From assembly GCA_902793405.1 (NCBI GenBank), contig CADBDH010000007.1, forward strand, positions 5,712-69,711: a DNA stretch of 64,000 nt. The letters run 5' to 3'. Position numbers and translations under genes: made by a program. This document shows, in pieces, positions 3,767 through 62,692 of the stretch (positions are counted from its first letter, which is position 1; the number at the start of each line of letters is the position of its first letter). The stretch comes from an uncultured Bacteroidales bacterium. Lineage in GTDB: Bacteria; Bacteroidota; Bacteroidia; Bacteroidales; Muribaculaceae. A model generated the notes under the pieces. That model saw only the letters and a program-made list of their open reading frames with translations, did no database searches and was not told where the DNA came from.

Positions 3767-3794
3767 CTCTAAACCCTAAACTCTAAACTCTAAA
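3767..3794. repeat. Heptamer tandem array (CTCTAAA x4, one unit CCCTAAA)
   Basis: Read directly from the sequence. It reads TTTAGAG on the minus strand, downstream of the lipoprotein gene. Confidence 0.8.
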
Positions 3795-3797
3795 CTT

Positions 3798-3827
3798 CAA
3801 GGAGGCAAGCATCTGCTTGCCTCCTTG
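3798..3827. terminator. Bidirectional intrinsic terminator
   Basis: Perfect 13-bp stem CAAGGAGGCAAGC-ATCT-GCTTGCCTCCTTG between convergent genes. Confidence 0.8.
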
Positions 3828-3829
3828 AA

Positions 3830-4186
3830 TTAATCCTTGAACTTGATGATGCAGTCTTCGCCAGCATGAATCGTGACGATGTCCTGATAGAGCAGGCGCT
3901 CGTTCTTTTGCCTGACCATCACCTGTCGCGTTCCTTGTTGGGCGCCGTAGCGCATTCCCTTGACCTCGCCGTCGACAATCTGGGCGGTCGAGGCCAGAAA
4001 GGTCTTGTCAAGGCCCGAGATGTTGACCCACAGGTCATCATACTGCTTGCCCGACTCGCTCACAAATATCAAGAAACCGAAGGTGTCATAAGTGCCGGTG
4101 CCTTTTGCCAGCTTGTAGCTGTAGCCCGAGCAAGCGCTCAGCAACAGGCACACGAGGCATAACAATGCTGGCAAGAACCGTTTCAT
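3830..4186 (-). CDS. Small hypothetical lipoprotein
   Basis: Signal MKRFLPALLCLVCLLLSAC (ATG at 4186). The mature part looks beta-rich. It lies immediately downstream of the SDR gene. Confidence 0.7.
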   Translation of the reverse strand: MKRFLPALLCLVCLLLSACSGYSYKLAKGTGTYDTFGFLIFVSESGKQYDDLWVNISGLDKTFLASTAQIVDGEVKGMRYGAQQGTRQVMVRQKNERLLYQDIVTIHAGEDCIIKFKD

Positions 4187-4199
4187 CGTCACAGTCTAT

Positions 4200-12061: not shown

Positions 12062-13993
12062 TTATTGGAGTGAACTGATGCTTGCGGCCTTGACCGTAAA
12101 GAAGTTATCACTATTGTTTCTCAACAGATTGTACTCGCCGTGGTTGCCCCATGGTGCGGGCTTGTCCTCGATGGCGGTGTCCTCGCCCGTGTCGTTGTCG
12201 ACATAGGGCTCGATGCGTTGCTGCCACGAGCGGATGCGGGCCTGGGACGAAGCGCGGTCCATCAGCGCATTCTTGGCATCAATCAGTTCTTTAAGGTAGG
12301 CAACATATTTCACCTTGAATTCATTGAACCGGAGTATCCTGGCAATCAGGCGGTTGTTGTCGTTACCCCACTTGAGCGGATTCTGCCGGCCTGCATCGTC
12401 CTGCACGCCGCAGCGCAGGCTCGTGCCCAGCGTGTTGTCGTAGTCGTAGGGGATGAAGTAGAACTTGTAGCCGGTCAAGCCCTTGCCATTGAAGTAGATG
12501 TAGTAGTTGTTGGCGTTGTTCCAATAGTCGTCCCACATGCCCACGGCAACATTGACGGCATAGGTCTTGAGCAACAGGTCCACATCGGTCACTTCTTGAA
12601 TCCAGGTGTAGAATTCGCTGTCGCTCAAGTTGGTGAGCTTGTTCATGAAGTCCACGAGCTGGACGCGGGCGCTGTCAAAGTCGCCCGTCTCGGTCTCCAG
12701 CGTGTAGGCATGGCGGTCATCGGTATCGTCGTCATACCAGATGTCGCCGTTGGGGTTGTTAAGGCCGGCAGCCGAATTTCGGCATTTCCACAGGAAGCCG
12801 TTGCTGGCGCCGAAGCTGTTCTTGCGGTCCTTGAGGTAACGCTTGTCGATGGGCTCAAGCAGTTCATACACACCGTAGTAGGCCTCCTGGCTGTCGCCCT
12901 CGACGTGGATCCACAAGCGGCAATAGTTGTCGCGGACGGCGGTCCACACGCCGGCACGGCGGAAGAGTTCGTAGCAGAACATCTCGCGTACATAGGCTGG
13001 ATCGTCCTTGAACCACTTGAGGTGCAGTTTGCGCACGCCCTGGATGGTGTGGTCCTCATCGTCGACATATTTGCGCAGATTCACCCCGAAGTGGGCGTGA
13101 TGCCAGTCGGTGTTGTCGTGCTGGTGCTGCTGCCCGTTCCATCCCTCGGGACGGCGGCGTGAGGTGTTGCCCTTGATGCGCAGGCCCACGTTGTCGATGA
13201 CGGTGGTCTCGCCATCCTTGACGAAGGTGACTGTTGCGGCGACATATTGGGTCGTGAAGCTGTTGGCATCATAGAGGGCCAGCAGGCGGTTCCACTCGTC
13301 GAGGCTCACACTCAGGTGTACCTCGGGGATGGCCTTATCGTCCCACACATAGTCGTAGCCCTCCTTGACAGGTTCGGGAAGGTATCCGCCCAGCAGGTAG
13401 TCAATGATGGCATTGATGTCGGCAATGTTGACTTCGGTGTCGTAGTTGACATCGCTGCGGTGGCGTGTGTCATAGTTGGCAAAACCGCCCAAGATGATGT
13501 CAATCAGTTTGTTGACGTCTGCAATATTGACTTCACCGTCACCATTCACATCGCCTACCTCGAGCGTAAACGGGTCGGGCATTGGCGGCTCCTGGTACTC
13601 ATCGATGCCGAAGGTGAGATGCGTCAGGTCGAAGGTGAACACATAGTCCTTGCCGCTGCCTGTGAACTTGTAGGAGTGGTTATTGTTGCTCTTTTGGGTG
13701 GTATAGGTGTTGCCGGCGGCAACTTCCTGGCTGCCGCCCGTGGGGCCGTAGCGGTAGTTGGCGTTAAAGACGTTCCAGTCGCTGCTCAGCCCGTCGGCAA
13801 ACACAAACCACACCGTGCCGCTGATGTTGGCGGTCAATGTGTAGGTGCCATTGCCCAGGTCGGTCATTTCGACTCCTCGGCCGGGATTCCAGTCGCCAAA
13901 GGGGGTGTTGCCCACCATATAGATGGCTGCCCGTGCCGGCAGCGCTGCCAGCACGAGAGCCAAAATTGTCATCAGATTGTATAATCTATTCAT
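12062..13993 (-). CDS. Secreted CotH-family kinase with N-terminal SusE/F-like carbohydrate-binding domain and dockerin-like module
   Basis: Signal peptide. N-terminal YMVG...GDW...NGTY beta domain. Duplicated DVNxDxEVNIAD. CotH motifs GLRIKGNTSR, YGVYELLEPID and FIPYDYDNTLG. Confidence 0.8.
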   Translation of the reverse strand: MNRLYNLMTILALVLAALPARAAIYMVGNTPFGDWNPGRGVEMTDLGNGTYTLTANISGTVWFVFADGLSSDWNVFNANYRYGPTGGSQEVAAGNTYTTQKSNNNHSYKFTGSGKDYVFTFDLTHLTFGIDEYQEPPMPDPFTLEVGDVNGDGEVNIADVNKLIDIILGGFANYDTRHRSDVNYDTEVNIADINAIIDYLLGGYLPEPVKEGYDYVWDDKAIPEVHLSVSLDEWNRLLALYDANSFTTQYVAATVTFVKDGETTVIDNVGLRIKGNTSRRRPEGWNGQQHQHDNTDWHHAHFGVNLRKYVDDEDHTIQGVRKLHLKWFKDDPAYVREMFCYELFRRAGVWTAVRDNYCRLWIHVEGDSQEAYYGVYELLEPIDKRYLKDRKNSFGASNGFLWKCRNSAAGLNNPNGDIWYDDDTDDRHAYTLETETGDFDSARVQLVDFMNKLTNLSDSEFYTWIQEVTDVDLLLKTYAVNVAVGMWDDYWNNANNYYIYFNGKGLTGYKFYFIPYDYDNTLGTSLRCGVQDDAGRQNPLKWGNDNNRLIARILRFNEFKVKYVAYLKELIDAKNALMDRASSQARIRSWQQRIEPYVDNDTGEDTAIEDKPAPWGNHGEYNLLRNNSDNFFTVKAASISSLQ

Positions 13994-14558: not shown

Positions 14559-14607
14559 ATTTAGTCCTTAGTTTTTAGTCCTTAGTTTTTAGTTCTTAGT
14601 TGTTAGT
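14559..14607. repeat. Heptamer tandem array (NNTTAGT x7; ACTAANN on the coding strand)
   Basis: ATTTAGT CCTTAGT TTTTAGT CCTTAGT TTTTAGT TCTTAGT TGTTAGT. It fills most of the spacer and ends 1 nt from the downstream ATG. Confidence 0.9.
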
Positions 14608-14614
14608 TGTTATG

Positions 14615-16396: not shown

Positions 16397-16548
16397 TGTC
16401 TATATTTGTTTTATCGTTAGAATTCAGATTACTGACCTGCAAAGTTACAATTTTATCATTAAAGATAACGATGCCAGGTGATTTTTTTCCCGCATCTGAA
16501 CACATTGAACAGATGCGGGAAAAGAATGGCTGATATGATCTTTGGCAG

Positions 16549-18050: not shown

Positions 18051-18080
18051 TTTAAAGACAACTTGAACAACTCTAACAAC
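18051..18080 (+). repeat. Left arm of 30-bp inverted repeat flanking GxxExxY (built from ACAACT-core nonamers)
   Basis: TTTAAAGACAACTTGAACAACTCTAACAAC matches the reverse complement of 18559-18588 at 28/30. Confidence 0.9.
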
Positions 18081-18082
18081 TT

Positions 18083-18541
18083 TTATAAATATTGCCGTGT
18101 TCTTCTTGCCTTTAAATCACATATAATCTTGCCGTCAATACCAACGATACGGTTGTTCTCCTTGTCATACAGGTACCGTTCAAGCTCATAGTTTCTAGGA
18201 GCAAAATTCACCAGAATACCACATGGCTTCTTGAGCAAGCGCATATAGTTGAATAATTGGGCTCGATGGCCTGAAATCAGCTCGCTCACTGATTTACACT
18301 CAACAATAATTTCCTCTTTGCACAGGAAATCAATTCTAAATAGTGCCTCCATGGCTTGCTTGTGGTAGAATGGATGGAATGACTGTTCTCTAAGGTACGG
18401 AATTCCTTGTTCTTTCAGTTGGATTTCAAGGCCTTCTTGATAGCAAGACTCATTCAATCCGGGTCCTAACTCGCAATGAACTTCATGGATTGCCCCGATA
18501 ACATCATATATGCATTTTTTATAGTATTCAACGTCAATCAT
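18083..18541 (-). CDS. GxxExxY family protein (PD-(D/E)XK-like fold)
   Basis: LGPGLNESCYQE (GxxExxY), FRIDFLC, IIVECKSV and HRAQLFNYM...GILVNF. Visibly AT-rich compared with its neighbours. Confidence 0.92.
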   Translation of the reverse strand: MIDVEYYKKCIYDVIGAIHEVHCELGPGLNESCYQEGLEIQLKEQGIPYLREQSFHPFYHKQAMEALFRIDFLCKEEIIVECKSVSELISGHRAQLFNYMRLLKKPCGILVNFAPRNYELERYLYDKENNRIVGIDGKIICDLKARRTRQYL

Positions 18542-18558
18542 TTTTTTATGGCTAAAAT

Positions 18559-18588
18559 GTTGTTTGAGTTGTTCAAGTTGTTTTTAAA
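18559..18588 (-). repeat. Right arm of 30-bp inverted repeat flanking GxxExxY
   Basis: GTTGTTTGAGTTGTTCAAGTTGTTTTTAAA. Confidence 0.9.
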
Positions 18589-26051: not shown

Positions 26052-26165
26052 ATGTAGTTGTAAGTTTTAAGTTTTTAGTTTTAAGTAAAGATTCCTTAGC
26101 TTTAATGTTTTTCAGGCGATAGTAATATTACTTATCACTTAAAACTTACAACTTAAAAACTTAAA
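26052..26165. repeat. Inverted pair of heptamer arrays (TTTAAGT-type x5, then ACTTAAA-type x5)
   Basis: 26052-26086 ATGTAGT TGTAAGT TTTAAGT TTTTAGT TTTAAGT. 26130-26165 ACTTATC ACTTAAA ACTTACA ACTTAAA (A) ACTTAAA. Confidence 0.85.
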
Positions 26166-26172
26166 AGATAAC

Positions 26173-38108: not shown

Positions 38109-38251
38109 GGACGGACCTAACGGATAAAACGGATATAATGGATAAAACGGAGGCAACGGGAACGCCCGCTTCCTCCGTTTTCATTTTTAATTCCGTAAAT
38201 TCCGTAAATTCCGTAATCTCCGTTAATTCCGTTACATCCGTCAAGTCCGTC
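38109..38251. repeat. Facing nonamer arrays (ACGGA core x6, then TCCGT core x7) around a central hairpin
   Basis: ACGGA-like cores at 38111, 38120, 38129, 38138, 38147 and 38156. TCCGT at 38192, 38201, 38210, 38219, 38228, 38237 and 38246 (period 9). Confidence 0.9.
38144..38181. terminator. Bidirectional terminator built from the nonamer arrays
   Basis: AAAACGGAGG...CCTCCGTTTT perfect outer stem with an inner CGGG/CCCG pair. Confidence 0.75.
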
Positions 38252-38930
38252 CTTTCTCATCGAGCAGGGCTTTTAGCCGCGCGATTTCTTGCTTGAGTGC
38301 AGCAATTTCCCGTGCTTGCTGCTCGATGATTTCCCTTTGAGTCGCACGTTGTTCAAGCCGTGCAGCGGTCATGCGCTCACGCACACCGCCCTCGGTAGTG
38401 AATTCACGGTCTTTCCTCTCGATGTATTTGTTCAATGCGGCATCTACTTGATGACACAGGCAGATGGCCATGTTAGCCATTTCTTCATCGTTCATCTTGG
38501 GCAGCAACTCCTTGTAATCCTCAAATTTGCTGTGTGCTCGGCAAAAGTCGAGCATGGCTTTATATCGGGGATGAGTGCCATACCACTCGGTGTATCCTTT
38601 GCGTTTGATGTAGTCCTGGTAGTCCTCGAGCAGTTCCTTGTTGCTCCCGCGGGCAAATCCCAATAGTTTCAATTCACTCTCCACCGAGGTCTCACCATCA
38701 CTGCTGCCCTCAACGATGTTCTGTTTGCAGCTGCGGGCGGCTTGAACCATCTGGTCAACAGTGCGGTCGCCATAATGTTTCAGAAAACGCTGGCAAAACA
38801 CCTGAGTCAATTGGTACAGCACGTCACTCCGCTGATAAAAACGCAACTCGGTATATATTGTCCTACGGCGCAACGAGCTGGCAGTCCCATCCTCGTAATG
38901 GCTAATACGAGGTTTCATTTTGTCCTCCAT
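38241..38930 (-). CDS. Four-helix-bundle protein with suffix domain (23S rRNA IVS/Avd-like family)
   Basis: TVDQMVQAARSCKQNIVEG, ELLEDYQDY, EMANMAICL and the suffix motif FTTEGGVRERMTAAR. Confidence 0.88.
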   Translation of the reverse strand: MEDKMKPRISHYEDGTASSLRRRTIYTELRFYQRSDVLYQLTQVFCQRFLKHYGDRTVDQMVQAARSCKQNIVEGSSDGETSVESELKLLGFARGSNKELLEDYQDYIKRKGYTEWYGTHPRYKAMLDFCRAHSKFEDYKELLPKMNDEEMANMAICLCHQVDAALNKYIERKDREFTTEGGVRERMTAARLEQRATQREIIEQQAREIAALKQEIARLKALLDEKGRT

Positions 38931-38937
38931 AAAACTC

Positions 38938-38973
38938 TGTTCCGTTAACTCCGTAATCTCCGTTAAGTCCGTC
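38938..38973. repeat. Nonamer array (TCCGT core x4), direct copy of the array at the gene's 3' side
   Basis: TCCGT at 38941, 38950, 38959 and 38968. The 17-mer TCCGTAATCTCCGTTAA is identical at 38210-38226 and 38950-38966. Confidence 0.9.
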
Positions 38974-43587: not shown

Positions 43588-43597
43588 AATATTTTGT

Positions 43598-43625
43598 CTT
43601 TAGTCTATAGTCTATAGTTTTTAGG
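43598..43625. repeat. Heptamer array x4 (CTTTAGT CTATAGT CTATAGT TTTTAGG)
   Basis: Located in the malT-malQ spacer. It reads as ACTA-core units on the coding strand just before the malQ start. Confidence 0.7.
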
Positions 43626-46371: not shown

Positions 46372-46466
46372 TTTAGGCTTTAGGCTTCAGACTTTAGGTC
46401 AATAACTGAAGCCTAACTCCTAACTCCTAACGCCTAACTTCTCACTTCTAACTCCTAACGCCTAAT
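46372..46466. repeat. Opposed heptamer arrays (TTTAGGC-type x4, then NCCTAAC-type x8)
   Basis: 46372-46399 TTTAGGC TTTAGGC TTCAGAC TTTAGGT. 46411-46466 GCCTAAC TCCTAAC TCCTAAC GCCTAAC TTCTCAC TTCTAAC TCCTAAC GCCTAAT, running into the ATG. Confidence 0.9.
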
Positions 46467-48762: not shown

Positions 48763-48766
48763 GGGG

Positions 48767-48931
48767 AGTTAGAAGTTAGGAGTTAGGAATTAGGAGTTAG
48801 AAGTTAGGAGTTAGAAGTTAGGAGTTAGGAGTTAGGAGTTGGCATTTGTCAACAACTAGGGACTAGAAACTAAAAACTAAGAACTAGAAACTAGGGACTA
48901 GGGACTAGAAACTAAGGACTAAAAACTAAAA
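48767..48931. repeat. Two adjacent heptamer arrays (AGTTAGR x10, then ACTARNN x11)
   Basis: 48767-48836 AGTTAGA/AGTTAGG units, then 48855-48931 ACTAGGG/ACTAGAA/ACTAAAA/ACTAAGA/ACTAAGG units ending 4 nt before ATG 48936. Confidence 0.95.
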
Positions 48932-48935
48932 ACTT

Positions 48936-50000: not shown

Positions 50001-50005
50001 TAACG

Positions 50006-51472
50006 TTAAGGTGCCTCCGTTCCCCACTGCGACTGCAGCCATTCGATTTTTGGGTATAAACAAAGATTGCGGGTAAAATTGATTCTTGCCTTGATATTGT
50101 CGCATTCCGACTTGGGCCAGCGGTTATAGTCACAGTTGCCAGCAGCCTCTATTTTATCACCAAACTCATCCAGGAAATGGTCTAATTGGGGATAGATGTC
50201 AGTGTAGAATCTTTTCCAATGATTACGCACGCACTCCTGAAATCGCGGAAACTTGGCAATTTCGGCAATCCAATGCAAATGGAGGTTACTAGGTGCCTCG
50301 TCATAGATGAAATGGTCGAATTCATAGCTGGACGAGTATCGGGAAAAGCAACTGCCAAAGTCCCAAAGGGGACCAAATATCAGTTTTGTGCTGTCACCGC
50401 GCTCTTTGTGCAGGAAGCAACTACCGTGGAATCCCTCAGTATCGTCCATAATCTCCTGAATAATATAGAAAATGGCGAGTGAGTCGATATCTATATAAAG
50501 TTCCCATTCGGTACTGCTCTTGTCTTCACAATAGATGGCACTGTCGGTCTGTATGAGGAAATCGGTCATATAAGTTCGTTGAACATCGCTCAGCACCTCA
50601 GGTGATTGGGGTGTTACCCAGAAAGCCCAGCCGTTGCCTTCGGTGAACGATATCTGGTCAGGTTCATAATAGTTGTCGATTTCCATCAGCCAGCCGCCCG
50701 TTATTTTTTGGGGATCGGTCTCGTTGTCTTTCTGCTTGATGATGTTGACACGGTTCTTATCGACACAGATTTTCTCGGTCAAGTGATACAGGCCGATGTA
50801 TTGTCCGTTAAGCACCACTTCGACAGGGACTTGACGGGGATTCCAGGCCATTCCCATTCTGCGGCCGATCTCAAAGGGTAATGCGTTATTGAATTGCCCA
50901 ATCCAGAAATCAGCGCCACTAATCAACACCCAGTGTCGGCTTGACGGCATTCCCAGCATAGGGCGAGCCTGGGGAAGCTTGAGCCGAAATGGTTTCTTGT
51001 CGTGATGTGTCCACGTGTAATTGCCACGGCCCTTAATCTGCATTTCCAGTGGCTGGGCGGCAGATCCGATAGGCTCATATTCCTCAATGCCCATATTATC
51101 GAGCCACCATTCGGCGAAGAGGTACTCCTCCTTGCTGTCGATGTTGCGGTGTCCCTCGGTGTTGATATAAAGAACGGGAAGGGTCCCCGAATAGGATGGC
51201 ATAGCTGGTAATTCCTTGCCATGTATGGCATCAATAATCATATTGATGTCGGCAATATTGATTTCCTTGTCCCCGTTGACGTCGGTGGCATAGCTATAAA
51301 ATGAATGATACTTGGCATCGCTGTAAATCGAGTCTAACAACGCATTGACATCTGCAATATTGACTTCCCAGTCGCAGTTCAAGTCGCCACGCGGCCTGAG
51401 CCCTGACTGGGCATGTGCCGTCAGGCATGAAAATGCCATGTAAAGGATGAATATAGTAAGAATTTTTTTCAT
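50006..51472 (-). CDS. Secreted CotH-family kinase with N-terminal dockerin-like module
   Basis: Signal peptide, DLNCDWEVNIAD/DVNGDKEINIAD, then IKGRGNYTW, KKPFRLKL, VVLNGQYIGLYHLTE and GPLWDFG. Confidence 0.88.
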   Translation of the reverse strand: MKKILTIFILYMAFSCLTAHAQSGLRPRGDLNCDWEVNIADVNALLDSIYSDAKYHSFYSYATDVNGDKEINIADINMIIDAIHGKELPAMPSYSGTLPVLYINTEGHRNIDSKEEYLFAEWWLDNMGIEEYEPIGSAAQPLEMQIKGRGNYTWTHHDKKPFRLKLPQARPMLGMPSSRHWVLISGADFWIGQFNNALPFEIGRRMGMAWNPRQVPVEVVLNGQYIGLYHLTEKICVDKNRVNIIKQKDNETDPQKITGGWLMEIDNYYEPDQISFTEGNGWAFWVTPQSPEVLSDVQRTYMTDFLIQTDSAIYCEDKSSTEWELYIDIDSLAIFYIIQEIMDDTEGFHGSCFLHKERGDSTKLIFGPLWDFGSCFSRYSSSYEFDHFIYDEAPSNLHLHWIAEIAKFPRFQECVRNHWKRFYTDIYPQLDHFLDEFGDKIEAAGNCDYNRWPKSECDNIKARINFTRNLCLYPKIEWLQSQWGTEAP

Positions 51473-51542
51473 GATAATGAGCTTTTCCGTTACACTAATA
51501 TAACGAAAAATAGGTTGATTTATTGCCGCAATTCAATTTAAA

Positions 51543-51612
51543 TCACTCCTAACTCCTCACTCCTAACTCCTCACTCCTAACTCCTCACTTCTAACTTCTC
51601 ACTTCTAACTCT
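51543..51612. repeat. Heptamer array x10 with strict TCACTYC/TAACTYY alternation (14-bp super-period)
   Basis: TCACTCC TAACTCC x3, then TCACTTC TAACTTC TCACTTC TAACTCT. Contains the stop codon of the upstream GT4. Confidence 0.92.
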
Positions 51613-52699
51613 TGACTCCCAGCATTTTGCGGGCACAGGCCACGTTGGTCAGTTCTTTGCCCTCCTTGACACATGCAGCATGCATCTTGTCGTAGTTGTT
51701 GATGACCTCAATCAAGTCATTCTCGTCCCAGTTGTCGCGCACGACGCCCAGCCCGTTGGCAGCGATGAACGATGCCGTTGAGGGTTTCGTATTGGTCACG
51801 ACGGGAGTGCCGCTGGTGATGGCCTCGGCAATGGTGACCATGTTCAGGTCATTACTGGTATCCACCAGCAGCGCCAGCGCGTGCCTGAGGGGCTCGGCTA
51901 GTCGTTCATGTGACAGGAAACCGTGGAACACCACATTTTTTTCAATACCCAACTTGGATGCCATCTGTTTTAATTCTTGCATCTGGTCGCCGTCCCCAAT
52001 GATGTCCAGGCGGTAATTATGATAAGGCTCTTGACTCACGAGACGGGCAAACTTAGTGATGATGCTGTCCACATTTTTGCGCTTGACCAGTTGAGAGACG
52101 ACAATGAAGGCATTTTCCACATGGTCGCTGGGGTAGAGTGTGTGGGCATCGGTGCCATGGTCCACAATCACGTCGCTCACGTGACGGCTGTAGCGGCTCA
52201 TGAAACGCTTGGCGGGCTCGCTGCGCGGCACGATGGTCACCTGTCCCATGAACGTCGGGACAATGACATTGTGCCAGAACTTGGACGGCAGTTTGAACAA
52301 CAGGCGCTGATGGCGATCCATCTCTTGCCAGATGAGCAACTTGGACTTGCAGACACCGGCGGCGATGAGGGTGGCAATCTGGAACGATTCGCTCGCAATC
52401 ACCAGGTCATATTCGGTCGAGTGCTGCTTGAGCCAGGCGCGCATTCCCCTGGGCCAGGGCAGCAGGGTTGGTTTGAACACTTGCGGCAACCGGGAGGGGA
52501 AATAAACGACTTCGAAGGGTAATTGCTCATCTTTGCCTGTGGGCATGAACTCCTGCGACGCCAGCAACGTCACCTCATGGCCCAACTCGATAAAACCGCG
52601 CGCAAAGGTGCTGATCATGCAATCGCTGATGGATTCCTTGCGCTTGATGATGCCATGCTCGGCGGTCGAGAGTATGCAGTTAATGATGAGTACCTTCAT
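51605..52699 (-). CDS. GT4 glycosyltransferase
   Basis: VVSQLVKRKNVD, DIIGDG, VVFHGFL and MVTIAEAITSGTPVV. Start reassigned to ATG 52699, with a -7 box at 52721-52728 on the minus strand. Confidence 0.85.
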   Translation of the reverse strand: MKVLIINCILSTAEHGIIKRKESISDCMISTFARGFIELGHEVTLLASQEFMPTGKDEQLPFEVVYFPSRLPQVFKPTLLPWPRGMRAWLKQHSTEYDLVIASESFQIATLIAAGVCKSKLLIWQEMDRHQRLLFKLPSKFWHNVIVPTFMGQVTIVPRSEPAKRFMSRYSRHVSDVIVDHGTDAHTLYPSDHVENAFIVVSQLVKRKNVDSIITKFARLVSQEPYHNYRLDIIGDGDQMQELKQMASKLGIEKNVVFHGFLSHERLAEPLRHALALLVDTSNDLNMVTIAEAITSGTPVVTNTKPSTASFIAANGLGVVRDNWDENDLIEVINNYDKMHAACVKEGKELTNVACARKMLGVKS

Positions 52700-52769
52700 T
52701 TTATGGTCGCTTTGCGGCCCCAAAATTATAAATAATGTTGTATCTTTGCAAACAATAATCAGTAGAATC

Positions 52770-53717
52770 ATGTCACAATTGGTCTCTATCATTATCCCTG
52801 CCTATAATGCTGCTCCTTTTCTGGAACGCAGTGTGGCAAGCGCTTTGGCACAGACTTATCAGGATATTGAGGTCGTGATTGTGGACGATGGTTCGACCGA
52901 TGGCACCAGCGCCCTTGCCGATGAGCTGACTGCCCAAGACGAACGGGTGAGGGCCGTCCATCAGGAGAATCTGGGGCCAGCTGAAGCCCGCCATAACGGG
53001 TTCAAGGCTGCAACGGGTGACTTTATTGCGTATCTGGATGCCGATGATGAACTATTGCCTGACGCCATAACTTTCTTGTACGATAAGTGTGAAACCAATC
53101 AGTTGGATTTGGCCTATGGTTCATTTGTTAAGGTAAGAGAAGAGGAAAGTTATGAAGTTCCTCATCCTTTTGAAGGAGTGTTGACGGGTGATGAATATCT
53201 GCATTTTCTGTTCGATCGTCGCTGCATGTGTGCCTCATGGGGCAACTTGGGCCGTCGCGAGATGTATCGTGAAGAAGTTTTTCCGCCTAAAGATCAAGTG
53301 TTCCCAAATGAGGATGTTTATATGAACATTTGCATGAGTGCCTATGTTAACCGAGTCGGGATTTATAATAAGCCGGTCGTGAAGTATTATTATGTGCCAA
53401 CATCCTTGACGGTCACTAGCCGCCATCTGACTAGTCAGACTAACTGGGAACGATTTTTCACGTTGGTGGAAAATAACCTGCAGTCTCGGGGCAAACTGGA
53501 CGACCTGGAGAGGGAATTGCTGTGCATGAAACTGGACAGGCTTGCTTTTTATGTTTATCCGCTCGACACGAGCCATCGGTGGGTCAATAAGACCATCAAC
53601 GACCGCCGCTACAAACTGCCGCGCCGGGCCGCCGTCCTGCAACTGCTGCTGCATTACCCCAGGTTGTGCCACTGGTGTGTGGTCAATAACCGCAGGCTGA
53701 AGAAATTGTTCAAATAG
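52770..53717 (+). CDS. GT2 glycosyltransferase
   Basis: VSIIIPAYN, VDDGSTD, ARHNG and YLDADD. Start at ATG 52770, with a -7 box at 52741-52748. Confidence 0.92.
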   Translation: MSQLVSIIIPAYNAAPFLERSVASALAQTYQDIEVVIVDDGSTDGTSALADELTAQDERVRAVHQENLGPAEARHNGFKAATGDFIAYLDADDELLPDAITFLYDKCETNQLDLAYGSFVKVREEESYEVPHPFEGVLTGDEYLHFLFDRRCMCASWGNLGRREMYREEVFPPKDQVFPNEDVYMNICMSAYVNRVGIYNKPVVKYYYVPTSLTVTSRHLTSQTNWERFFTLVENNLQSRGKLDDLERELLCMKLDRLAFYVYPLDTSHRWVNKTINDRRYKLPRRAAVLQLLLHYPRLCHWCVVNNRRLKKLFK

Positions 53718-53732: not shown

Positions 53733-55424
53733 TTACCGCGGGTAGAACGAATTGGACTTGACTTTGCGTTTGCGCACATTGGAGATGTGCTTCAGCATGT
53801 CGTTTTGGCTGTTCACGCCACGGAACTCATTTCCCCTGATTTCCAGTTTCTCAAACCTCATGGATGACGTGGAGGCATTGCCGTAATGCGCCATGAATTG
53901 GCCATTTCTCGTCGAGACGGTTACCTTGTTGTTGTTGAAGATGACATTTCCCTTGCTGGCAAAGTCTTCCAGGAAGAAGTAGTCATGGTTACAGTCGAAG
54001 GTGTTGTTCCTGAAATCAAGGTTGAGCCAGTCGATTTTCTTGCAATAGATGGATGTGCGCCCTTGGAAATAATTGTTGAAAGCGGTCAGCGAGAACTGGC
54101 CGATGCCATTACCCGACTCAAGGGTGGCAATGCGTGCCAGGCCCTTGCACACGTTGTTGCGCAGGGTCACTGTGCCGCCTTCCTTGCCACACCACAGCAG
54201 ATTGACGCCATAGGCCTTCCTGTTGGGGCCGGTGGTGATGAGGTTGTTGACCTTGTTGCCGTCGAGCAGCACGTTGCCGCTGCGCACGAGCAGGAATGTG
54301 TAGCCCGATCCGTTGTACGGGTTCATGATGGCATATTTGTTGGTCATCGTGTTGTTTCTCACGACGATGGTGTCTTGCTGGGTTGACAGGTCCCACACGT
54401 CGATATCCATGCGGTAGAATGTTTCGCCCGACTTGACATTGTTGCTGATGAATTCGTTGTCATGGATGACAAAGTCGCTGTGCCGGTCTTTGGTGTCAAA
54501 CTGGAAATGGATGATGCGCTTGCACAGGTCGTTGACGTAGAACTTGTTGCGGGCCAGTTCAAAGCCTCGCATGTCACAGCTGTATTCTGGGTAGTGATCG
54601 GACGTGAGCACCGAGAATATCATATCGTTGAACATGCCGTCGATGAGCTTGTCATTGTGCTGGTAGTAGAACTCATTGTCGGTGACTCTGATATTGGTGC
54701 GGCTGATGTTGCCAGGGGCGCTATTTTTGGCATTGATGGTTTTTGAGAAAAAAGCAACCGCCTCGTCATTACCGTATTTATAGAACTTGTTGTTGCGAAT
54801 GGTGATGTTGTGCATCTCGCCGCGCAGCCACAGGTTGCCACCCGTCGCGCAGTTGTTGTAGTTGCTGATGACGCAATTCTCGACGGTAACATTGGAGCAC
54901 ACGCGCAGGTCAAAGTTGGTGATTTTGGCATTGAGCATGGTGCTCTTCACGTTGCGGAGGTCAACTTTGTTGGCGTGATAGATTTTCACAGCATGGAATT
55001 CTGAGTTTTCCCACCATATCCCCTGATGTTCCATCAGATTGATGCTCAAATCGCGAATAGTGACCGAAATCGAGTTGGTGGGTGTGCCGGCAATCGTGAT
55101 GAAGGCGTCACTGTTCAGTTTCTTCTGTGACTCGTTTTTCTTGAGCAGGACAATCGTGTTATCGGCGCCGGTGCCGGTCATGGTGACGCTGCACTTGCCG
55201 ATGATGACATCGTCAAGGATATAGGTGCCCGGTTGGTCGAAATTAATGGCGAACGTGTCGTCATAGGTGAGACGTTGTATCTGGTTGTTCAGCGCTGTGG
55301 CAAGGTTCGAGCCCTTTGCTATGGAACTGACATTAAATGTAACGGTGCGCGCTTGTAGGGCCGTACTCGCAACCAGCAGCGTCGCTACCAATAGAAGATT
55401 CCTGATAAAGCCTTGATGTCTCAT
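53733..55424 (-). CDS. Secreted right-handed beta-helix (pectin lyase-fold) protein
   Basis: Signal peptide and many Asn-rich (V/I)x(D/N)N turns (ITIRNNKF, IRVTDNEF, VVRNNT, LLDGN, FRNNTF). ATG at 55424. Confidence 0.7.
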   Translation of the reverse strand: MRHQGFIRNLLLVATLLVASTALQARTVTFNVSSIAKGSNLATALNNQIQRLTYDDTFAINFDQPGTYILDDVIIGKCSVTMTGTGADNTIVLLKKNESQKKLNSDAFITIAGTPTNSISVTIRDLSINLMEHQGIWWENSEFHAVKIYHANKVDLRNVKSTMLNAKITNFDLRVCSNVTVENCVISNYNNCATGGNLWLRGEMHNITIRNNKFYKYGNDEAVAFFSKTINAKNSAPGNISRTNIRVTDNEFYYQHNDKLIDGMFNDMIFSVLTSDHYPEYSCDMRGFELARNKFYVNDLCKRIIHFQFDTKDRHSDFVIHDNEFISNNVKSGETFYRMDIDVWDLSTQQDTIVVRNNTMTNKYAIMNPYNGSGYTFLLVRSGNVLLDGNKVNNLITTGPNRKAYGVNLLWCGKEGGTVTLRNNVCKGLARIATLESGNGIGQFSLTAFNNYFQGRTSIYCKKIDWLNLDFRNNTFDCNHDYFFLEDFASKGNVIFNNNKVTVSTRNGQFMAHYGNASTSSMRFEKLEIRGNEFRGVNSQNDMLKHISNVRKRKVKSNSFYPR

Positions 55425-55452
55425 ATCTATGTAGTGATTCGGGATTATACGG

Positions 55453-56778
55453 TTATGTTGGGGAAAGACTCTTTTTGGTGCCGGCATCATCGGGTAGCCA
55501 TGATCCGGCAACCAGGCCATAGAGGACGATGCAGAATACCGGGTCGCGCATCGACTCGATGTAGAAGAAGTTGATGCCGATGAGGATGACCAGGAAGAGC
55601 TGCAAGTTCAGGTCTCGCTTGGAAAGGCCCTCGGGGTGACGCACGAATATCGAGACCAGGAACACGATATACCACAAGATGCCCACCAGACCCAACTGGA
55701 GGTACACGTGGATGAAGTAGGGGATGGTGCCGATCAGGTACCATTCATATTGGTCATACAGTTCAGAATGGCTCAACTTGGTGCCGCCCTTGAAGTGGCC
55801 CACGCCAAAACCCATGGGGATGTGCCCAGGCTCATTCTCTTCGAACATGGGCAGCAGCAGGAACTTGGTCGCCCTGGGGATGTCGGCAAGGCCATTCTCA
55901 TTGTTCTCCATGTTCCAGGTCGCGTCTTCCTCGGCTCGCTCGACATCCATGAACATGTACTCCATCAGGTATTCCTCGCTGAAGATGTCCAGGCCGTCGG
56001 CCGTCTTGCTCACCTCGCCAGTGTAGGTCATCTTATAGGTCATGTAACCCACGCCAAACAGCAGGGACATTACCGGCACGACAATCAGGGCGCGGGTGAA
56101 CATGCGCTTGCCGATGGGCACCAGCAGGATGAAGTAGAGCACCAGCAGCACGAAGCTGATCTTGGTCTCGTTCAGGAAGGTGGGCGTGAGCAGCAGCACG
56201 TACTTGTAATTGGTGAGGATGGAGCTGATGAAGTGCCTCGGGTTGATGCGTTTCCTGATCAGGTAGAAGGAGATCAGGTAAATCATCATCGAGATGGTGC
56301 CCGAGTACCAGTTGCCCAACGAGCCGCCGCCATGGTCACCGGCGGTGTAGACGATGAACTGGTACAGGATGCACGGTACCTGCAGCCACAGGAAGACTTC
56401 CAGATTCTTGTCAAAGGCCTTGACGAAACGGTCACGCCGATTGGGGTCATCCCAGAAGTAGCGGAATATCGGGTAGCAGAACATCACGCCGAAGAACACG
56501 CGTATGCCGTTCACCGTCATGGTGACGGGCAACTTGTTCAGCACCAGGCTGCTTGTCAAGGCAATGAACAGCAGCGATCCGACGAACAGGAAATCGGCCT
56601 TGTGGCGCAACGTCATCAGGCCTATCAGCACCAGCACAGCGTCGCAGGCCAGCAGGATATAACTGCGCAGCGACTCAAGGCCGGGGACAAACTCGTCGCA
56701 GACGAAGCCAACGGTACCCAAAACCCAAAACACGCCCAAAAGGGCGCGTTGGATGAATATGGATTTGGTGACTTGCAT
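55453..56778 (-). CDS. Putative polysaccharide polymerase (Wzy/O-antigen ligase-like)
   Basis: Polytopic membrane protein with a large periplasmic loop, directly downstream of wzc. Confidence 0.65.
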   Translation of the reverse strand: MQVTKSIFIQRALLGVFWVLGTVGFVCDEFVPGLESLRSYILLACDAVLVLIGLMTLRHKADFLFVGSLLFIALTSSLVLNKLPVTMTVNGIRVFFGVMFCYPIFRYFWDDPNRRDRFVKAFDKNLEVFLWLQVPCILYQFIVYTAGDHGGGSLGNWYSGTISMMIYLISFYLIRKRINPRHFISSILTNYKYVLLLTPTFLNETKISFVLLVLYFILLVPIGKRMFTRALIVVPVMSLLFGVGYMTYKMTYTGEVSKTADGLDIFSEEYLMEYMFMDVERAEEDATWNMENNENGLADIPRATKFLLLPMFEENEPGHIPMGFGVGHFKGGTKLSHSELYDQYEWYLIGTIPYFIHVYLQLGLVGILWYIVFLVSIFVRHPEGLSKRDLNLQLFLVILIGINFFYIESMRDPVFCIVLYGLVAGSWLPDDAGTKKSLSPT

Positions 56779-56803
56779 CTTCTATATGCGTTAGGTTTTA
56801 CCA

Positions 56804-56859
56804 ACTACCAACTAAGGACTAACAACTAGAAACTAGGGACTAGAAACTAGAAACTAAAT
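56804..56859. repeat. Heptamer array x8 (ACTANNN)
   Basis: ACTACCA ACTAAGG ACTAACA ACTAGAA ACTAGGG ACTAGAA ACTAGAA ACTAAAT. On the coding strand it starts at the wzc stop codon. Confidence 0.92.
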
Positions 56860-59174: not shown

Positions 59175-59183
59175 AATGGTTGA

Positions 59184-59990
59184 TTATCGGGTTAATGCGA
59201 TGACGAGTGATGCGATGACCGACACGCTGCTCACGATGGTTGAGATGACCGAGAGCTTGAAGGCGTTGTTCTGGTTATACTTGGAGTTGTCGATGCGTAT
59301 TTCGTTGGGCTCGACATACACCACGTCGTTCTGGCGCAGGTAGAAATAGGGCGAGTTGAACACGTCGCTGCTGTTGAGGTTGAGGAGCTGGTAGTTGCGC
59401 TTGCCGTCCTCGGTGCGGATGACATAGACGCGGTCACGCTTGCCAAACTCGGTGAGGTCGCCACAGGTGGCCAGGGCATCCAGCACGGTAAAGTACTGCT
59501 GACCAGTCACCACGCGGTGCGGATTCTTCACCTCGCCCAGCACGTCGATGCTGAAGTTCACGATGTCGACACGCACAAACGGGTCCTTGACGTCCTTGCT
59601 CACCAGGTCGGTAACCATTCTGGTGATTTCGGGAATGGTTTTGCCGCCCACCTGCAAGCGTCCCAGCACGGGCATCATGATGTAGCCGTGCTCGTCAACG
59701 ATGTAGGTCTGGGTGCGCGGTTGGGTCACCGACAACAGGGCATTGCGCGTGGCGGGATTGTCCATCGGCATGTTGTAGGCTGCGGTGGCCTGCGGTACCG
59801 ATGAGGTCACCGAGATGACCAGTTCGTCATCGGGCTGGATGCGGATGGGATAGTTGCCTTCGGCATTGGCCAGTGAGCCGTTGGGCGCTGCGGCCAGGTC
59901 TTTGAAATAGGCGAGCGTGTTGTCCTTCGTCGATGTGCATGACAACAGCGTTGCCGCTGCAATCATCATTATAAGTAATCTTGATTTCAT
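59184..59990 (-). CDS. wza: Polysaccharide export outer-membrane lipoprotein (Wza)
   Basis: Lipobox ending LLSC. RIQPDDEL, VDEHGYIMMPVLG, VLGEVKNP and YLRQNDVVYVEPN. Confidence 0.92.
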   Translation of the reverse strand: MKSRLLIMMIAAATLLSCTSTKDNTLAYFKDLAAAPNGSLANAEGNYPIRIQPDDELVISVTSSVPQATAAYNMPMDNPATRNALLSVTQPRTQTYIVDEHGYIMMPVLGRLQVGGKTIPEITRMVTDLVSKDVKDPFVRVDIVNFSIDVLGEVKNPHRVVTGQQYFTVLDALATCGDLTEFGKRDRVYVIRTEDGKRNYQLLNLNSSDVFNSPYFYLRQNDVVYVEPNEIRIDNSKYNQNNAFKLSVISTIVSSVSVIASLVIALTR

Positions 59991-60043
59991 ACGGTTACAA
60001 AAGTATTTCGTTTTTTACTTTAGTAAACGTATAACTGCAACAA

Positions 60044-61492
60044 TTATTTTATGGAATCGTGTGTTTTGATGAATTTTGACAGGAGCTGGTCGCGCAACTC
60101 CTTGCCGCAGGTCCATGCGATGCACCCCAGTGCGATGACCATAAAGACTATGTCAAACAGCGCATTAGGGCTATAATAGAAGGGGATTGTCCACAGGAGC
60201 ATCACGGCCACGGGAATGATGCAGCGGCGGTCGATTTTCAGGATAAAATAGCGGCGCATGTCATGCCAGCGGTAGAAGAACAGGACCAGATAAGTCACCA
60301 GCTGGGTGACGATGACGCCATAAACGCCCAGGGGCTTGATCAGGGCGAAGTTCAGGGCCACGTTGACGACTGCCGCAAGCACGATCGAGGGTAGGGTGCG
60401 CGGCGTGTCCTTGGCGCACTGGTAACCCATGTCGAAGAACGCTGCAAGACCGAAAATCACAGCCGACAGGCCCATGGGATAGATGTACATGAGGCTCTCG
60501 CGGTATTGCGGAGCGACCAGCCAGTTGTAGTTGGCCTTGAGCATGAAGGCATAACCGATCAGGATTCCGGCCAACGCAAAAATGTAGCTGTTGAACATCT
60601 TGGAGAAGAACCGGTCGCGGTCAGGGCTGTGGTATTGCAGGATAGCGGTCTCTTGCCAGGCCTGGTAGAAGATGATGGCCAGCGTGCTGATAATGCTGGT
60701 GAAACGGATGGCCACAGCATAGATGCCATTCACGTCCAGTCCAAGGAAATACTTGATAAACAGGCGGTCACTGCTTCCCGTGAGCCACCAGCACAGGGAG
60801 CCCGGCAGCAGGGGCAGGGTGTAGCGGATGATGTCGAGACCCACCTGGCGGGAACTGAGCGACCACCGCGTGTTGCGGGTGATGAGCCGCACGCGGCACT
60901 CGACCAGTATCAGGGCGAGCAGTCGGGCAACGATATTGGCCAGGAAGATGCCCTTGATGCCCCAACCCAGAATGGCGACAAACAGGATGCTGAACACGCC
61001 GATGCCCAGCGCCGACAGGATGCCTGTGACGGCAAAGGCCCGGTTGTTGCCCAGCCCGCGGAACACTTGGGAATACACCTCCTGCAGCGACAGGGCAATG
61101 AGCAGTCCTGTCGCATAGCCCAGGTAATGGATCTCGGTGGTGAACGACATCACAAGGGCCACCAGCATCGCCAGGGCCAGGGTGGTGATCATGGTGCGGG
61201 AAACAAAGGTGACGATGCGCTGGCGCTTGGTGTTGTCGTCGCAGTCGAGCAGGAACCTGAAGGCGCCGTCGCGCAGTTGCAGGGTGACAAATGGCAGGAG
61301 CAGGAAGCAGACGGTCAGGCACACATCGTAGTAGCCAAAGTCGGACGTGTCGTGTACAAAATAGGTGTACAGCGGCACCATCATGAAGGTGATGAGCTTT
61401 GACCCGATGTTGCCAATGGCATAGACGCCGACGTCCTTGATGAACTTGGAGCCTCGGCTGCTAGACCTGTTATTGTTTTCTGTCATTGTCAT
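60044..61492 (-). CDS. wzx: Polysaccharide flippase (Wzx)
   Basis: MOP-family pattern (MVPLYT...DFGYYD; SDRLFI...NGIYAVA) with many TM helices. Confidence 0.88.
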   Translation of the reverse strand: MTMTENNNRSSSRGSKFIKDVGVYAIGNIGSKLITFMMVPLYTYFVHDTSDFGYYDVCLTVCFLLLPFVTLQLRDGAFRFLLDCDDNTKRQRIVTFVSRTMITTLALAMLVALVMSFTTEIHYLGYATGLLIALSLQEVYSQVFRGLGNNRAFAVTGILSALGIGVFSILFVAILGWGIKGIFLANIVARLLALILVECRVRLITRNTRWSLSSRQVGLDIIRYTLPLLPGSLCWWLTGSSDRLFIKYFLGLDVNGIYAVAIRFTSIISTLAIIFYQAWQETAILQYHSPDRDRFFSKMFNSYIFALAGILIGYAFMLKANYNWLVAPQYRESLMYIYPMGLSAVIFGLAAFFDMGYQCAKDTPRTLPSIVLAAVVNVALNFALIKPLGVYGVIVTQLVTYLVLFFYRWHDMRRYFILKIDRRCIIPVAVMLLWTIPFYYSPNALFDIVFMVIALGCIAWTCGKELRDQLLSKFIKTHDSIK

Positions 61493-61636
61493 TTTTGCGG
61501 CTGCAAAATTATTAAAATATTTGGTTTTATGACCTCTCTTTCGCTAAATGTTTGTAATTTCGCCCCACAATACGACATCTCGAGACCCGAATGCGGTGTT
61601 AAAGTAATACTTTTAGAGGCAAAAGTCTGGCATCTG

Positions 61637-62692
61637 ATGATCAAGACCATCAACTCATGGCGTGGGCTCATGGCGGTGGCCGTGGTGCTCTTCCATTGTA
61701 ACGTGGCGTGGATTTATAACGTCGCCGTTTCGGGCGTGACGTTTTTCTTCCTCTCCAGCGCGTTCCTCTTGGCTCGGCGCCATCCGGTCGAGCGTCTCGA
61801 GGCGCGTGCCTATGGCCGCTTCGTCATGGAGCATGCCTTGCGCCTCTATCCCTTGCACTGGCTGGGGCTGGCCTTGTTGATTGTCATGGCGTGCACGCTG
61901 TATGCTGCGCCCATAAACTGGGGCGCGACGGCACTCAGTGCGCTGCTGCTGCACGCGTGGTCGCCCTTGCACGATGTCCACTATGGCATCAATCCGGTGG
62001 CCTGGTACATGAGTGCGCTGCTGTTCTGCTATTGCATCTATCCGCTGGTGATGCGGTGGATGGGGCTGTGGCGTCTGCGGCACAAGACCTTGCTGGCCGT
62101 GGCGCTGGCAGTTGTCCTCGGGGCCATCATGTTGCCGCTCGACATACCCGGGCGCGAGGCGGTGTTTGTCAATCCCTTGTCCCATGTCGTCGACGTGGTG
62201 GTGGGCGTGACCCTTATGCACCTGTGCCAGGTGCTGCAAGGACGCTGGCCCCGAGTGGGTTATCGCACGGCAACGTTCATCGAGTTGGGCGCCTTGTTGC
62301 TGCTGGCAGCGGTAATTGGGCTCAATATGATGACCACCCTGGTCAGGCCTTGGGAGGACGATGTGCTCTGGCTGTTGCCGCAGGGCGCGATATTGGCGGT
62401 GCTGGCCTGGCTCGCCGGGCAGGAGGGCGCTATCGGCCGCCTGCTGTTGTGCAAGCCGCTGCAATGGCTGGGCAGCATCAGTTTTGAGGTGTTTGTGCTG
62501 CAGTTCGTGGCTTTCAGGCTTTTTGCCTTTGTGATTGCTCCTGCCGCGGGCCATCTGGGATGCGACATCTACGGACAGTTGCCCTGGCTCGTGCTGGCGG
62601 TGCTACTGCCGCTCTCGTGGCTGGTGAACCGCGTTTTCACCCGTCCGTTGTCCCGAATCATCAAGCGAAAACTAACAACTAGAAACCAATGA
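61637..62692 (+). CDS. Acyltransferase 3 family O-acyltransferase
   Basis: RGLMAVAVVLFH, GVTFFFLSSAF, RLYPLHW and WYMSALLFCYCIYP. ATG at 61637. Confidence 0.88.
   Translation: MIKTINSWRGLMAVAVVLFHCNVAWIYNVAVSGVTFFFLSSAFLLARRHPVERLEARAYGRFVMEHALRLYPLHWLGLALLIVMACTLYAAPINWGATALSALLLHAWSPLHDVHYGINPVAWYMSALLFCYCIYPLVMRWMGLWRLRHKTLLAVALAVVLGAIMLPLDIPGREAVFVNPLSHVVDVVVGVTLMHLCQVLQGRWPRVGYRTATFIELGALLLLAAVIGLNMMTTLVRPWEDDVLWLLPQGAILAVLAWLAGQEGAIGRLLLCKPLQWLGSISFEVFVLQFVAFRLFAFVIAPAAGHLGCDIYGQLPWLVLAVLLPLSWLVNRVFTRPLSRIIKRKLTTRNQ
62671..62688 (+). repeat. Short ACTA-core heptamer remnant (ACTAACA ACTAGAA ACCA) at the acyltransferase junction
   Basis: Encodes the last residues of the first acyltransferase and leads directly into ATG 62689. 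Confidence 0.5.

Follow-up and report, generated by a model that had tools for sequence, protein, structure and literature searches.

Orientation-biased heptanucleotide arrays in the gene spacers of a rumen Bacteroidales bacterium: a new example of a known repeat class, without support for cassette exchange

Do short tandem repeats that bracket bacterial genes mark the boundaries of exchangeable cassettes, or do they arise where they stand? The question is raised by a stretch of 64,000 nucleotides from an uncultured Bacteroidales bacterium (assembly GCA_902793405.1, contig CADBDH010000007.1, positions 5,712 to 69,711 of the forward strand), hereafter the window, in which a first-pass annotation had noticed degenerate 7-bp arrays, and 9-bp arrays around two accessory genes. 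The 7-bp arrays were consistently oriented relative to starts and stops, and the annotation read them as a junction grammar, perhaps the handles or scars of a cassette-exchange system. Heptanucleotide units are the commonest class of long simple sequence repeats in bacteria, where they are intergenic and polymerase slippage has been proposed as their cause; their role is nonetheless a puzzle. We find that the window arrays are a rich new example of this known, poorly understood class: what the annotation saw is confirmed and extended, whereas its reading as a cassette-exchange system finds no support. The window (G+C about 55%) holds a starch utilisation locus (SusC/D/E/F-like genes, amylases) and a capsule and glycosyltransferase (GT) cluster, and 21 kb of it is identical to a contig of a bovine-gut metagenome, the host being an uncultured Bacteroidales of the bovine gut or rumen. 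Positions marked W or left unlabelled are window positions, L-numbers are loci from other assemblies, and X23-X26 are RNA runs.

Tandem Repeats Finder (TRF) recovers each of the arrays originally listed, those of period 9 included, except a weak one at 62671 (about 2.5 units). The window spacers thus hold 11 period-7 arrays of 3.3-11.6 copies, with 62671 as a weak twelfth site, and five period-9 arrays. A strict lag scan of the window returned five arrays at period 7, one at period 9, none at periods 4-6, 8 or 10-12, and none in shuffles; period 7 is the sole strongly enriched period. The pattern ACT(N4), three times over and closed by ACT, matched 33 times in the window and not once in 100 shuffles, which means that the different unit families have a common core. 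Every array is intergenic or overlaps just a stop or start codon, and its 7- or 9-mer units follow one another without unique spacers, which is not the build of a CRISPR. Neither a Rfam family nor an rRNA was found anywhere in the window. An intergenic heptamer array occurs about every 5 kb here, whereas 973 kb of related Bacteroidales, a background sample fetched via one protein and thus unbiased for arrays, average about one per 29 kb; period 7 is not dominant in that sample, so that array richness is specific to the window's lineage. The 10 kb to the right of the window (gld/type IX secretion and ribosomal genes) contain no heptamer array.

Most sites are versions of one strand-symmetric composite that runs stop codon, G/T-rich arm, short loop, A/C-rich arm, then start codon or terminator, and in which either arm may be long, reduced to a single unit, or missing. 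Inverted pairs are obvious at three sites (26056/26137, 46372/46412, 48765/48854), all on the plus strand. The largest, at 48765..48934, lies between a radical-SAM stop (48762) and a GT4 start (48936) and consists of GGAGTTA x10.9 (48765-48840), the centre GGCATTTGTCAAC and ACTARRR x11.6 (48854-48934), its arms pairing solely through 4-bp TTAG:CTAA/CTAG cores. A second fills the ychF-GT4 spacer (46372..46465): TTTAGGC x3.9 straight after the TAA stop (46372-46398), the loop TCAATAACTGAAG, and CCTAACT x7.7 entering the ATG (46412-46465). The third, at 26056..26166, separates a SusE-like stop (26049) from a SusF-like start (26173), with AGTTTTA x4.4 (26056-26086), a 50-nt loop and ACTTAAA x4.1 (26137-26166). 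Two seemingly lone arrays turn out to own a one-unit partner. At 3745..3796 (plus strand; TRF and comparison), in a convergent spacer after a SIR2-family stop (3740), the single G-rich unit AGTTAGGG (3745-3752) faces, across a 12-nt loop, a CCCTAAA/CTCTAAA array of 4.3 copies (3767-3796) with a terminator-like hairpin downstream (3797-3829); this composite is identical in three further strains. At 56790..56857 (minus strand), from a Wzz/tyrosine-kinase stop (56859) to the next start (56778), about eight copies of (TTAGTTTC/TAGTCCC)n in sense (56799-56857) are followed by a single CCTAAC partner (56790-56795, GTTAGG on the plus strand). Three minus-strand arrays are lone: (ACTAAGG/ACTAAAA/ACTAACA)n in sense, 7.4 copies, filling the spacer from an M24 peptidase stop (14615) to a hexapeptide-transferase start (14557) at 14560..14612; ACTATAG/ACTAAAG, 3.3 copies, A/C-rich in sense, 8 nt upstream of a GH77 start (43587) at 43596..43618; and G-rich GGAGTTA/GGAGTGA in sense, 10.7 copies, at 51543..51619, which overlaps the end of a GT gene (51605-52792) at its stop codon and lies 70 nt upstream of a CotH-like start. 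The weak site (62671..62692, plus strand, under the TRF threshold) reads ACTAACA ACTAGAA ACCAATG in the overlap of two acyltransferase genes. The likeness of CCCTAAA at 3767-3796 (TTTAGGG on the other strand) to the plant telomere repeat, and of TTTAGGC at 46372 to the nematode one, we take as coincidence.

The polarity noted by the annotation is borne out in the window. Arrays that are A/C-rich in sense end 0-8 nt upstream of starts, and arrays that are G/T-rich in sense begin 0-6 nt past stops or overlap them. The exceptions are partial: 14560 occupies a whole spacer, 3767 is an A/C-rich arm placed after a stop in a convergent spacer with one G-rich unit before it, and 56799 is G/T-rich in sense and 1 nt past a stop, yet just 20 nt upstream of the next start. 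No fixed phase exists between the last unit and the ATG among the window arrays. A composite of this kind reads alike on both strands and therefore seems correctly oriented whatever direction the flanking genes run. The gene-relative polarity is thus real, but mostly a by-product of the strand-symmetric composite. Of the proposed junction grammar, what stands is that genes are bracketed by A/C-rich arrays before the start and G/T-rich arrays after the stop; the recombination handles and scars find no support, and its further options of an RNA signal or a barrier to readthrough may still apply.

Compared with shuffled sequence, the paired arms form more stable folds (z from -2.3 to -4.4; -2.6 for SusE-SusF, -3.3 for ychF-GT4), and lone A/C arrays before starts are essentially unstructured (minimum free energy -2.3 kcal/mol at 14560..14612). 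TAnnTTTG, the -7 promoter motif of Bacteroidota, is present in all seven divergent spacers of the window, none of which contains an array, versus none of eight array spacers, from which we conclude that arrays occupy transcribed, promoter-less spacers. Lying outside open reading frames (ORFs) and in spacers that lack the promoter motif, they also do not resemble phase-variable contingency loci. RNA evidence here means assembled contigs, not reads; one such contig covers 25811-26202 and thus the SusE-SusF junction. Leaders in this genome are poor in G with or without arrays (41% A and 13% G without, 47% A and 12% G with them), and Shine-Dalgarno (SD)-like motifs precede 2 of 47 genes. As the annotation had remarked, nearly all units contain TAA or TAG; moreover, none of the six frames stays free of stops in any of the 8 unit families, a property of 23% of composition-matched random heptamers (p ~1e-5).

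In X23-X26 we also observed that contig depth at 48744-48977 is 117-223 on the arrays versus 0-20 on the flanking genes. Many of these contigs continue into unrelated sequence, and several read from coding sequence through TAA directly into an array; transcripts of the same heptamer families therefore come from many further loci in the rumen community. Depth was accordingly rejected as a measure of expression across the junctions, the array depth stemming from other loci with the same repeats.

How arrays change with time can be read from 10+10+6 conspecific loci of other assemblies, fetched by exact-protein look-up with YchF, LacI and two end genes (the radical-SAM protein as query gave no match). 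The ychF-GT4 spacer measures 65, 79, 86, 93, 107 or 121 nt, every step a multiple of 7, with both arms varying independently around a constant loop. The arrays thus vary in length as microsatellites do, an outcome that the annotation itself had named as speaking against its model. At the rSAM-GT4 junction each arm has 4-11 copies depending on the strain, and in L001, L003, L009 and L010 another family, CAGTTAA(n)...TTAACTG/TTCACTG(n), builds the same architecture. We had considered that CCTAACT at 46412 might pair at long range with AGTTAGG at 48765 and bracket two genes, and discarded this pairing as it is not kept in the CAGTTAA-bearing strains. At the MFS-GH77 junction, relatives at 88-90% identity have a leader of 16-33 nt with one or two ACT-type units, and the window species 3.3 units; to judge from this comparison, the array was born from a proto-repeat of one or two units in a short ancestral spacer. 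Downstream of ychF, a spacer of 43 nt without any array leads to the same gene in the relative L254, whose YchF is 98% identical (this allele is not a clean empty site); in other relatives the spacer holds TTTAGGC/CCTAAC arrays, nonamers of the TTAAGGNNN type or units with an ACTAGT core. The composite allele of L336 differs in copy number from that of L335. Taken together, these alignments show that arrays turn over fast and are dispensable.

Does the architecture hold outside this lineage? ACTARRR arrays, scanned in one genome per species, occur among the matches listed in Bacteroidota (many rumen and gut metagenome-assembled genomes), Cyanobacteria, Acidobacteriota, Planctomycetota, Gemmatimonadota, Vibrio and others; viral contigs were scanned separately for ACT at period 7, again using the matches listed. 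Since either arrangement of an inverted pair is strand-symmetric, pairs can be counted without gene calls: G/T-first (type I) pairs outnumber A/C-first (type II) pairs 45 to 8. In a set of 130 distinct inverted heptamer pairs, drawn from phages and from many phyla, G exceeds C in the first arm of 88 and C exceeds G in that of 12 (p ~2e-15), and T versus A is not polarised (T>A 49, A>T 37). With gene calls, G-rich-in-sense arrays lie nearer a stop than a start in a ratio of 94:41 (median 0-7 nt), versus 63:64 for C-rich ones (pooled Fisher p=0.001), and convergent sites outnumber divergent sites 26 to 9 in other genomes. Beyond the window, a pooled test of polarity by A+C content gave a weak signal short of significance, and the signal was clear only with G/C skew. 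Two candidate causes were set aside on these counts: a Bacteroidota-only one, the A-rich leaders, is rejected as the general cause because T versus A is unpolarised and the rule holds in other phyla and phages, and avoidance of terminators (U-tracts) is rejected on the same grounds. Among the viral contigs, L058 (IMG/VR, 10 kb) contains five G-first inverted CAGTGGT/ACCACTG-type pairs, and L087 and L025 are likewise packed; these pairs resemble the cyanobacterial STRR repeats.

We consider it somewhat probable (roughly 60%) that the window arrays are slippage-driven heptanucleotide arrays of the long simple-sequence repeat (LSSR)/STRR class, residing in transcribed, promoter-less spacers, with RNA-level constraints probably filtering their orientation. 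Membership of the class itself is plain: tandem copies number at least three, the arrays are intergenic, and copy number varies by whole units between relatives. STRR repeats of heterocystous cyanobacteria and LSSR were reportedly described by Mazel in 1990 and Mrazek in 2007; STRR1 (CCCCAGT) and STRR3 (CAACAGT) presumably read ACT... on the other strand, like the window units. Neither an orientation rule nor an inverted-pair architecture, both present in the window arrays, is known to have figured in those descriptions.

Two later studies come closer. Rehm et al. (2015) described GGGAATC and GGGGA(T/C)T heptamers in Xanthomonas and Nostoc, about 90% of them intergenic and mostly transcribed, with the G-rich strand in coding sense 0-50 nt past stops (overlaps included), the C-rich strand 0-50 nt before starts, 70-75 convergent pairs, and convergent spacers exceeding divergent ones; length varies among relatives and site type is kept, and the function was left unresolved (PMC4692102). 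The window arrays are alike in being G-rich after stops and C-rich before starts and in their G-first inverted pairs (88 of the 100 skewed pairs overall). They differ in that their A/T-rich units with an ACT/YTAR core (ACTARRR, CCTAACT, ACTTAAA, TTTAGGC) have no runs of three or more G, save occasional AGGG units, and cannot form G-quadruplexes, in that several families coexist in one genome of an SD-less Bacteroidales host, and in that arrays usually fill the stop-to-start spacer. MacGregor (2015) reported TAACTGA direct repeats in Beggiatoaceae, Cyanobacteria and a few Bacteroidetes (long arrays in some), forward and a few nucleotides before starts, with occasional reverse sets right past stops, in spacers with few ribosome-binding sites and inside operons of ribosomal proteins; binding of a protein (S1, cold-shock or RNA-recognition-motif, RRM) and horizontal transfer were proposed, and the function was again left unresolved (PMC4679880). 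TRF finds no TAACTGA array in the window, and TAACTGT/TAACTAT units occur at the rSAM-GT4 junction in other strains only. Inverted pairs dominate in the window whereas a single indirect repeat is reported for TAACTGA (PMC4679880), and the window lineage shows in-place birth and slippage, whereas horizontal transfer was proposed for TAACTGA. A reporter preprint on Nostoc leaves heptamer-array function unresolved too. To this class we add (i) population-level evidence of expansion in 7-nt steps, quick turnover and dispensability; (ii) the tracing of visible polarity to a strand-symmetric composite with the G-rich arm first; and (iii) a rule independent of gene calls, 88:12 for G versus C with T versus A unpolarised, which is obeyed in various phyla and in phage contigs and suggests a constraint at the RNA level.

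A mechanism along these lines would have two steps. Slipped-strand mispairing or unequal exchange would generate the arrays, and selection at the RNA level would decide which arrangements survive. A G-poor, A/C-rich, unstructured stretch would fit the SD-less leaders of Bacteroidota, so that only that strand may be tolerated beside the ATG. C-rich, G-poor, unstructured and untranslated RNA is a loading site for Rho. A C-rich arm could be harmless if an earlier-transcribed G-rich partner can pair with it, or if the initiating ribosome covers it, and such a filter would yield a general G-first, C-second rule. The orientation asymmetry concerns G versus C only, and does so for either transcription strand; Rho avoidance would be the simplest general filter. 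Two simple hypotheses, Rho avoidance and leader accessibility, thereby become directly testable. Any function is most likely modest (intercistronic spacer or leader, weak hairpin, six-frame stop barrier) and not cassette exchange.

A number of points weigh against slippage with an RNA-level filter. Neutral slippage does not predict six-frame stops in all eight families or the common ACT/YTAR core. The annotation was right that families turn up again far apart: no fewer than three loci (48765-48934, 56790-56857 and L335:17104-17187) combine the same pair of arm families with a GTTGG...CCAAC centre, although that centre is just a 4-5 bp palindrome. This recurrence, with ACTARRR in many phyla, hints at dispersal or sequence-specific selection instead of independent local slippage. 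The SusE-SusF junction is invariant in nine strains. In other genomes, A/C- or C-rich arrays show no clear closeness to starts, so that a leader constraint accounts for part of the polarity only; the comparative tests outside the window used crude longest-ORF gene calls, and what is said of Rho and translation comes from general knowledge. With the stops, the core and the distant recurrence of the composite unexplained, a functional or a dispersal model remains in play.

The functional model has the arrays act as a post-transcriptional module: a hairpin between the arms would hide the leader until a ribosome terminating upstream melts the G-rich arm, thereby coupling the translation of neighbouring cistrons in an SD-less bacterium, or A/C-rich arms would be platforms for S1, cold-shock or RRM proteins. 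It would account for arms lying within 0-8 nt of stop and start, for paired arrays that are transcribed and fold better than their shuffles, for the retention of one architecture at a junction whose unit family was replaced, and for the preservation of site type between Xanthomonas species (PMC4692102). Against it stand arm copies that vary independently (5/3, 5/11 and 4/11, for example), so that the stem is not maintained, a largest pair that is just 4/7 complementary, an array-free allele with the same genes, the absent phase between last unit and ATG, and composites in convergent spacers that have no downstream gene. We regard this module as unlikely, while placing it ahead of the other alternatives.

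The two accessory genes and their nonamer arrays bear on dispersal. On the minus strand, a GxxExxY/PDDEXK_3 gene (TIGR04256; 18083-18541) lies between inverted nonamer arrays (18058..18583; TRF and profile matches), ACAACTNNN before its start (18559-18583) and AGTTGTNNN after its stop (18058-18082). In other strains (L245:9092-9544) the protein of this allele is about 65% identical and the array family is kept, with flanking genes at least 95% identical, which suggests that the small gene was replaced or evolves very fast. Also on the minus strand, a four-helix-bundle gene with a suffix domain (38241-38930; TIGR02436, TIGR04258) sits among nonamer arrays (38119..38972): ACGGANNNN arrays at 38941-38972 and 38189-38250, then a terminator-like hairpin and an inverted array at 38119-38151. 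This site between ddl and a pullulanase gene (38100-38984) is polymorphic. The 225-233-aa form with the TIGR04258 suffix alternates with an unrelated-looking, Avd-like form of 122-131 aa, which in other strains and species (L003, at 3139-3641, L005 and L010; the site was also compared in L253-L257 and L310) lies inside a perfectly complementary inverted GATTAGT/ACTAATC heptamer stem; the 122-aa form of L003 matches TIGR02436 at 3e-33. The two forms differ in the repeat family that flanks them, each also having a separate terminator, and arrays are inverted on the two sides of both the GxxExxY gene and the short four-helix-bundle form. That these genes nest in stems built of arrays offers a lead on two widespread gene families. 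With so small a sample the link is no more than suggestive: single-sequence and iterative searches turned up just two further cases in 868 kb, and a specific association was not retained. We tentatively extend our reading to propose that G-first heptamer hairpins are general, strand-symmetric, expandable intercistronic elements of bacteria and phages that shield untranslated C-rich RNA from Rho and/or couple translation. They would also be the habitat or vehicle of GxxExxY and Avd-like four-helix-bundle genes, and so correspond, between genes, to the intervening sequences of rRNA; as a whole, this proposal is distinctly unlikely.

Alternatively, the composites could be dispersed, possibly mobile palindromes akin to repetitive extragenic palindromic (REP) elements or miniature inverted-repeat transposable elements, whose arms expanded later and whose loops carry four-helix-bundle and GxxExxY genes as cargo. 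REP elements and the bacterial interspersed mosaic elements (BIME) of enterobacteria form transcribed, strand-symmetric hairpins at gene 3' ends and between cistrons and are scattered in many copies; the REP sequence is fixed, about 35 nt long, and mobilised by RAYT transposases. The window composites are likewise transcribed, strand-symmetric and dispersed, their arm families and centre being common to the three distant loci named above and their arrays present in many rumen transcripts from other loci; unlike REP/BIME, their arms are variable tandem arrays, and no RAYT, transposase or integrase was found near arrays among the scanned genes. The intervening sequences of 23S rRNA, which lie inside an rRNA helix and are excised by RNase III, carry a four-helix-bundle ORF (PF05635, TIGR02436). 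The likeness lies in a four-helix-bundle gene in the loop of a long stem of complementary flanks, the difference in the location between ddl and the pullulanase gene and in stems made of tandem heptamers or nonamers. That either type of accessory gene stays with one array family of its own in different strains and species, and that an unrelated four-helix-bundle gene of Chitinophaga also lies inside an inverted ACTAAAA pair, speaks for cargo; ACGGA nonamer arrays that occur without any four-helix-bundle gene, and array-bracketed genes elsewhere that are mostly housekeeping (ribosomal proteins L15 and S13, Rrf2, NIF3, QueD/E), speak against it. With neither a target-site duplication nor a clean filled-versus-empty site found, a conserved centre that merely continues the arms as a short palindrome, and arrays that demonstrably grow in place from proto-units, we find dispersal of this kind quite improbable.

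The model with which we started, in which arrays mark the ends of cassettes as recombination handles or scars and bring about gene exchange in the capsule and polysaccharide-utilisation regions, is largely refuted already and, in our estimate, very improbable. Strain homology is interrupted around the four-helix-bundle gene, over precisely the segment between the stops of ddl and the pullulanase gene; further breaks are at W 49863 (within a gene), W 51623 and W 52699, and at a SusC/D insertion. The first of these, a four-helix-bundle cassette swapped precisely between two stop codons, would suit the model, and so would W 51623, at an array edge, and a two-unit nonamer remnant beside rearranged genes in L252. 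In the swapped cassette, however, the arrays lie within the exchanged segment and are unlike between alleles (ACGGANNNN nonamers versus GATTAGT/ACTAATC heptamers); W 51623 is the sole breakpoint at an array, the other allele (the alternative gene arrangement of L001) merely lacking the 51543..51619 array; and no arrays were found at W 49863, W 52699, the SusC/D insertion or the junctions of the alternative capsule genes of L001. Gene gain and loss, expected by the annotation precisely at arrays, is bounded by no conserved arrays in the strain comparison, arrays come and go at constant gene content, and the genes that arrays flank in many phyla are housekeeping ones. Pfam scans of 30 window genes, including all array-flanking ones, gave no integrase, recombinase or transposase; a XerC/D-like gene lies 8 kb outside the window in an array-free region. 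Since the alleles' arrays differ, breakpoints are mostly array-free and no recombinase stands beside arrays, the recombination reading is left unsupported. Integron attC sites are imperfect inverted repeats at gene boundaries in variable regions. The window arrays share that placement and differ from integrons in lacking an integrase among the scanned genes and conserved core sites, in differing between exchanged alleles, and in that changes of gene content do not end at arrays. For annotators, the warning is that heptamer arrays are not cassette boundaries.

Equally little credence is due to a role of the DNA itself, in which the arrays would bind a regulator or a nucleoid protein, or would tune promoters as spacers of phase-variable length: copy number does differ between strains, some arrays have a 14- or 21-bp superperiod (21 bp being two helical turns), and in a Nostoc preprint deletion of a heptamer array alters regulator effects on a promoter, but arrays avoid promoter-bearing and divergent spacers and follow an orientation rule specific to G versus C and symmetric for either strand, which an RNA-level constraint fits better.

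The comparison also brought up features apart from the arrays. Between the phosphodiesterase and M24 peptidase genes (16396-16549), L243 (11395-16360), L245 and L251 carry an extra SusC/SusD pair, whose junctions show terminator- and promoter-like sequence without repeat arrays. The capsule locus at 49863-52699 has alternative gene sets in L001 and L006, in which an acyltransferase replaces the GT2 gene and the CotH-like gene stands on the opposite strand (469 aa versus 488 aa). Three ORFs of 120, 595 and 441 aa (3830-4192, 53733-55520 and 55453-56778), two of them in the capsule cluster, gave no Pfam or NCBIfam match. Both the CotH-kinase-like protein at 12062-13993 and the CBM26 alpha-amylase at 27405-29468 carry a dockerin domain of type I, which is seldom seen beyond the cellulosomal Firmicutes and is consistent with a rumen Bacteroidales lineage. 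Finally, in L008 (12400-12552, corresponding to window 47667-47743) the promoter-bearing spacer between the GT4 and radical-SAM genes contains a 64-nt tandem duplication that includes the -7 motif TACCTTTG.

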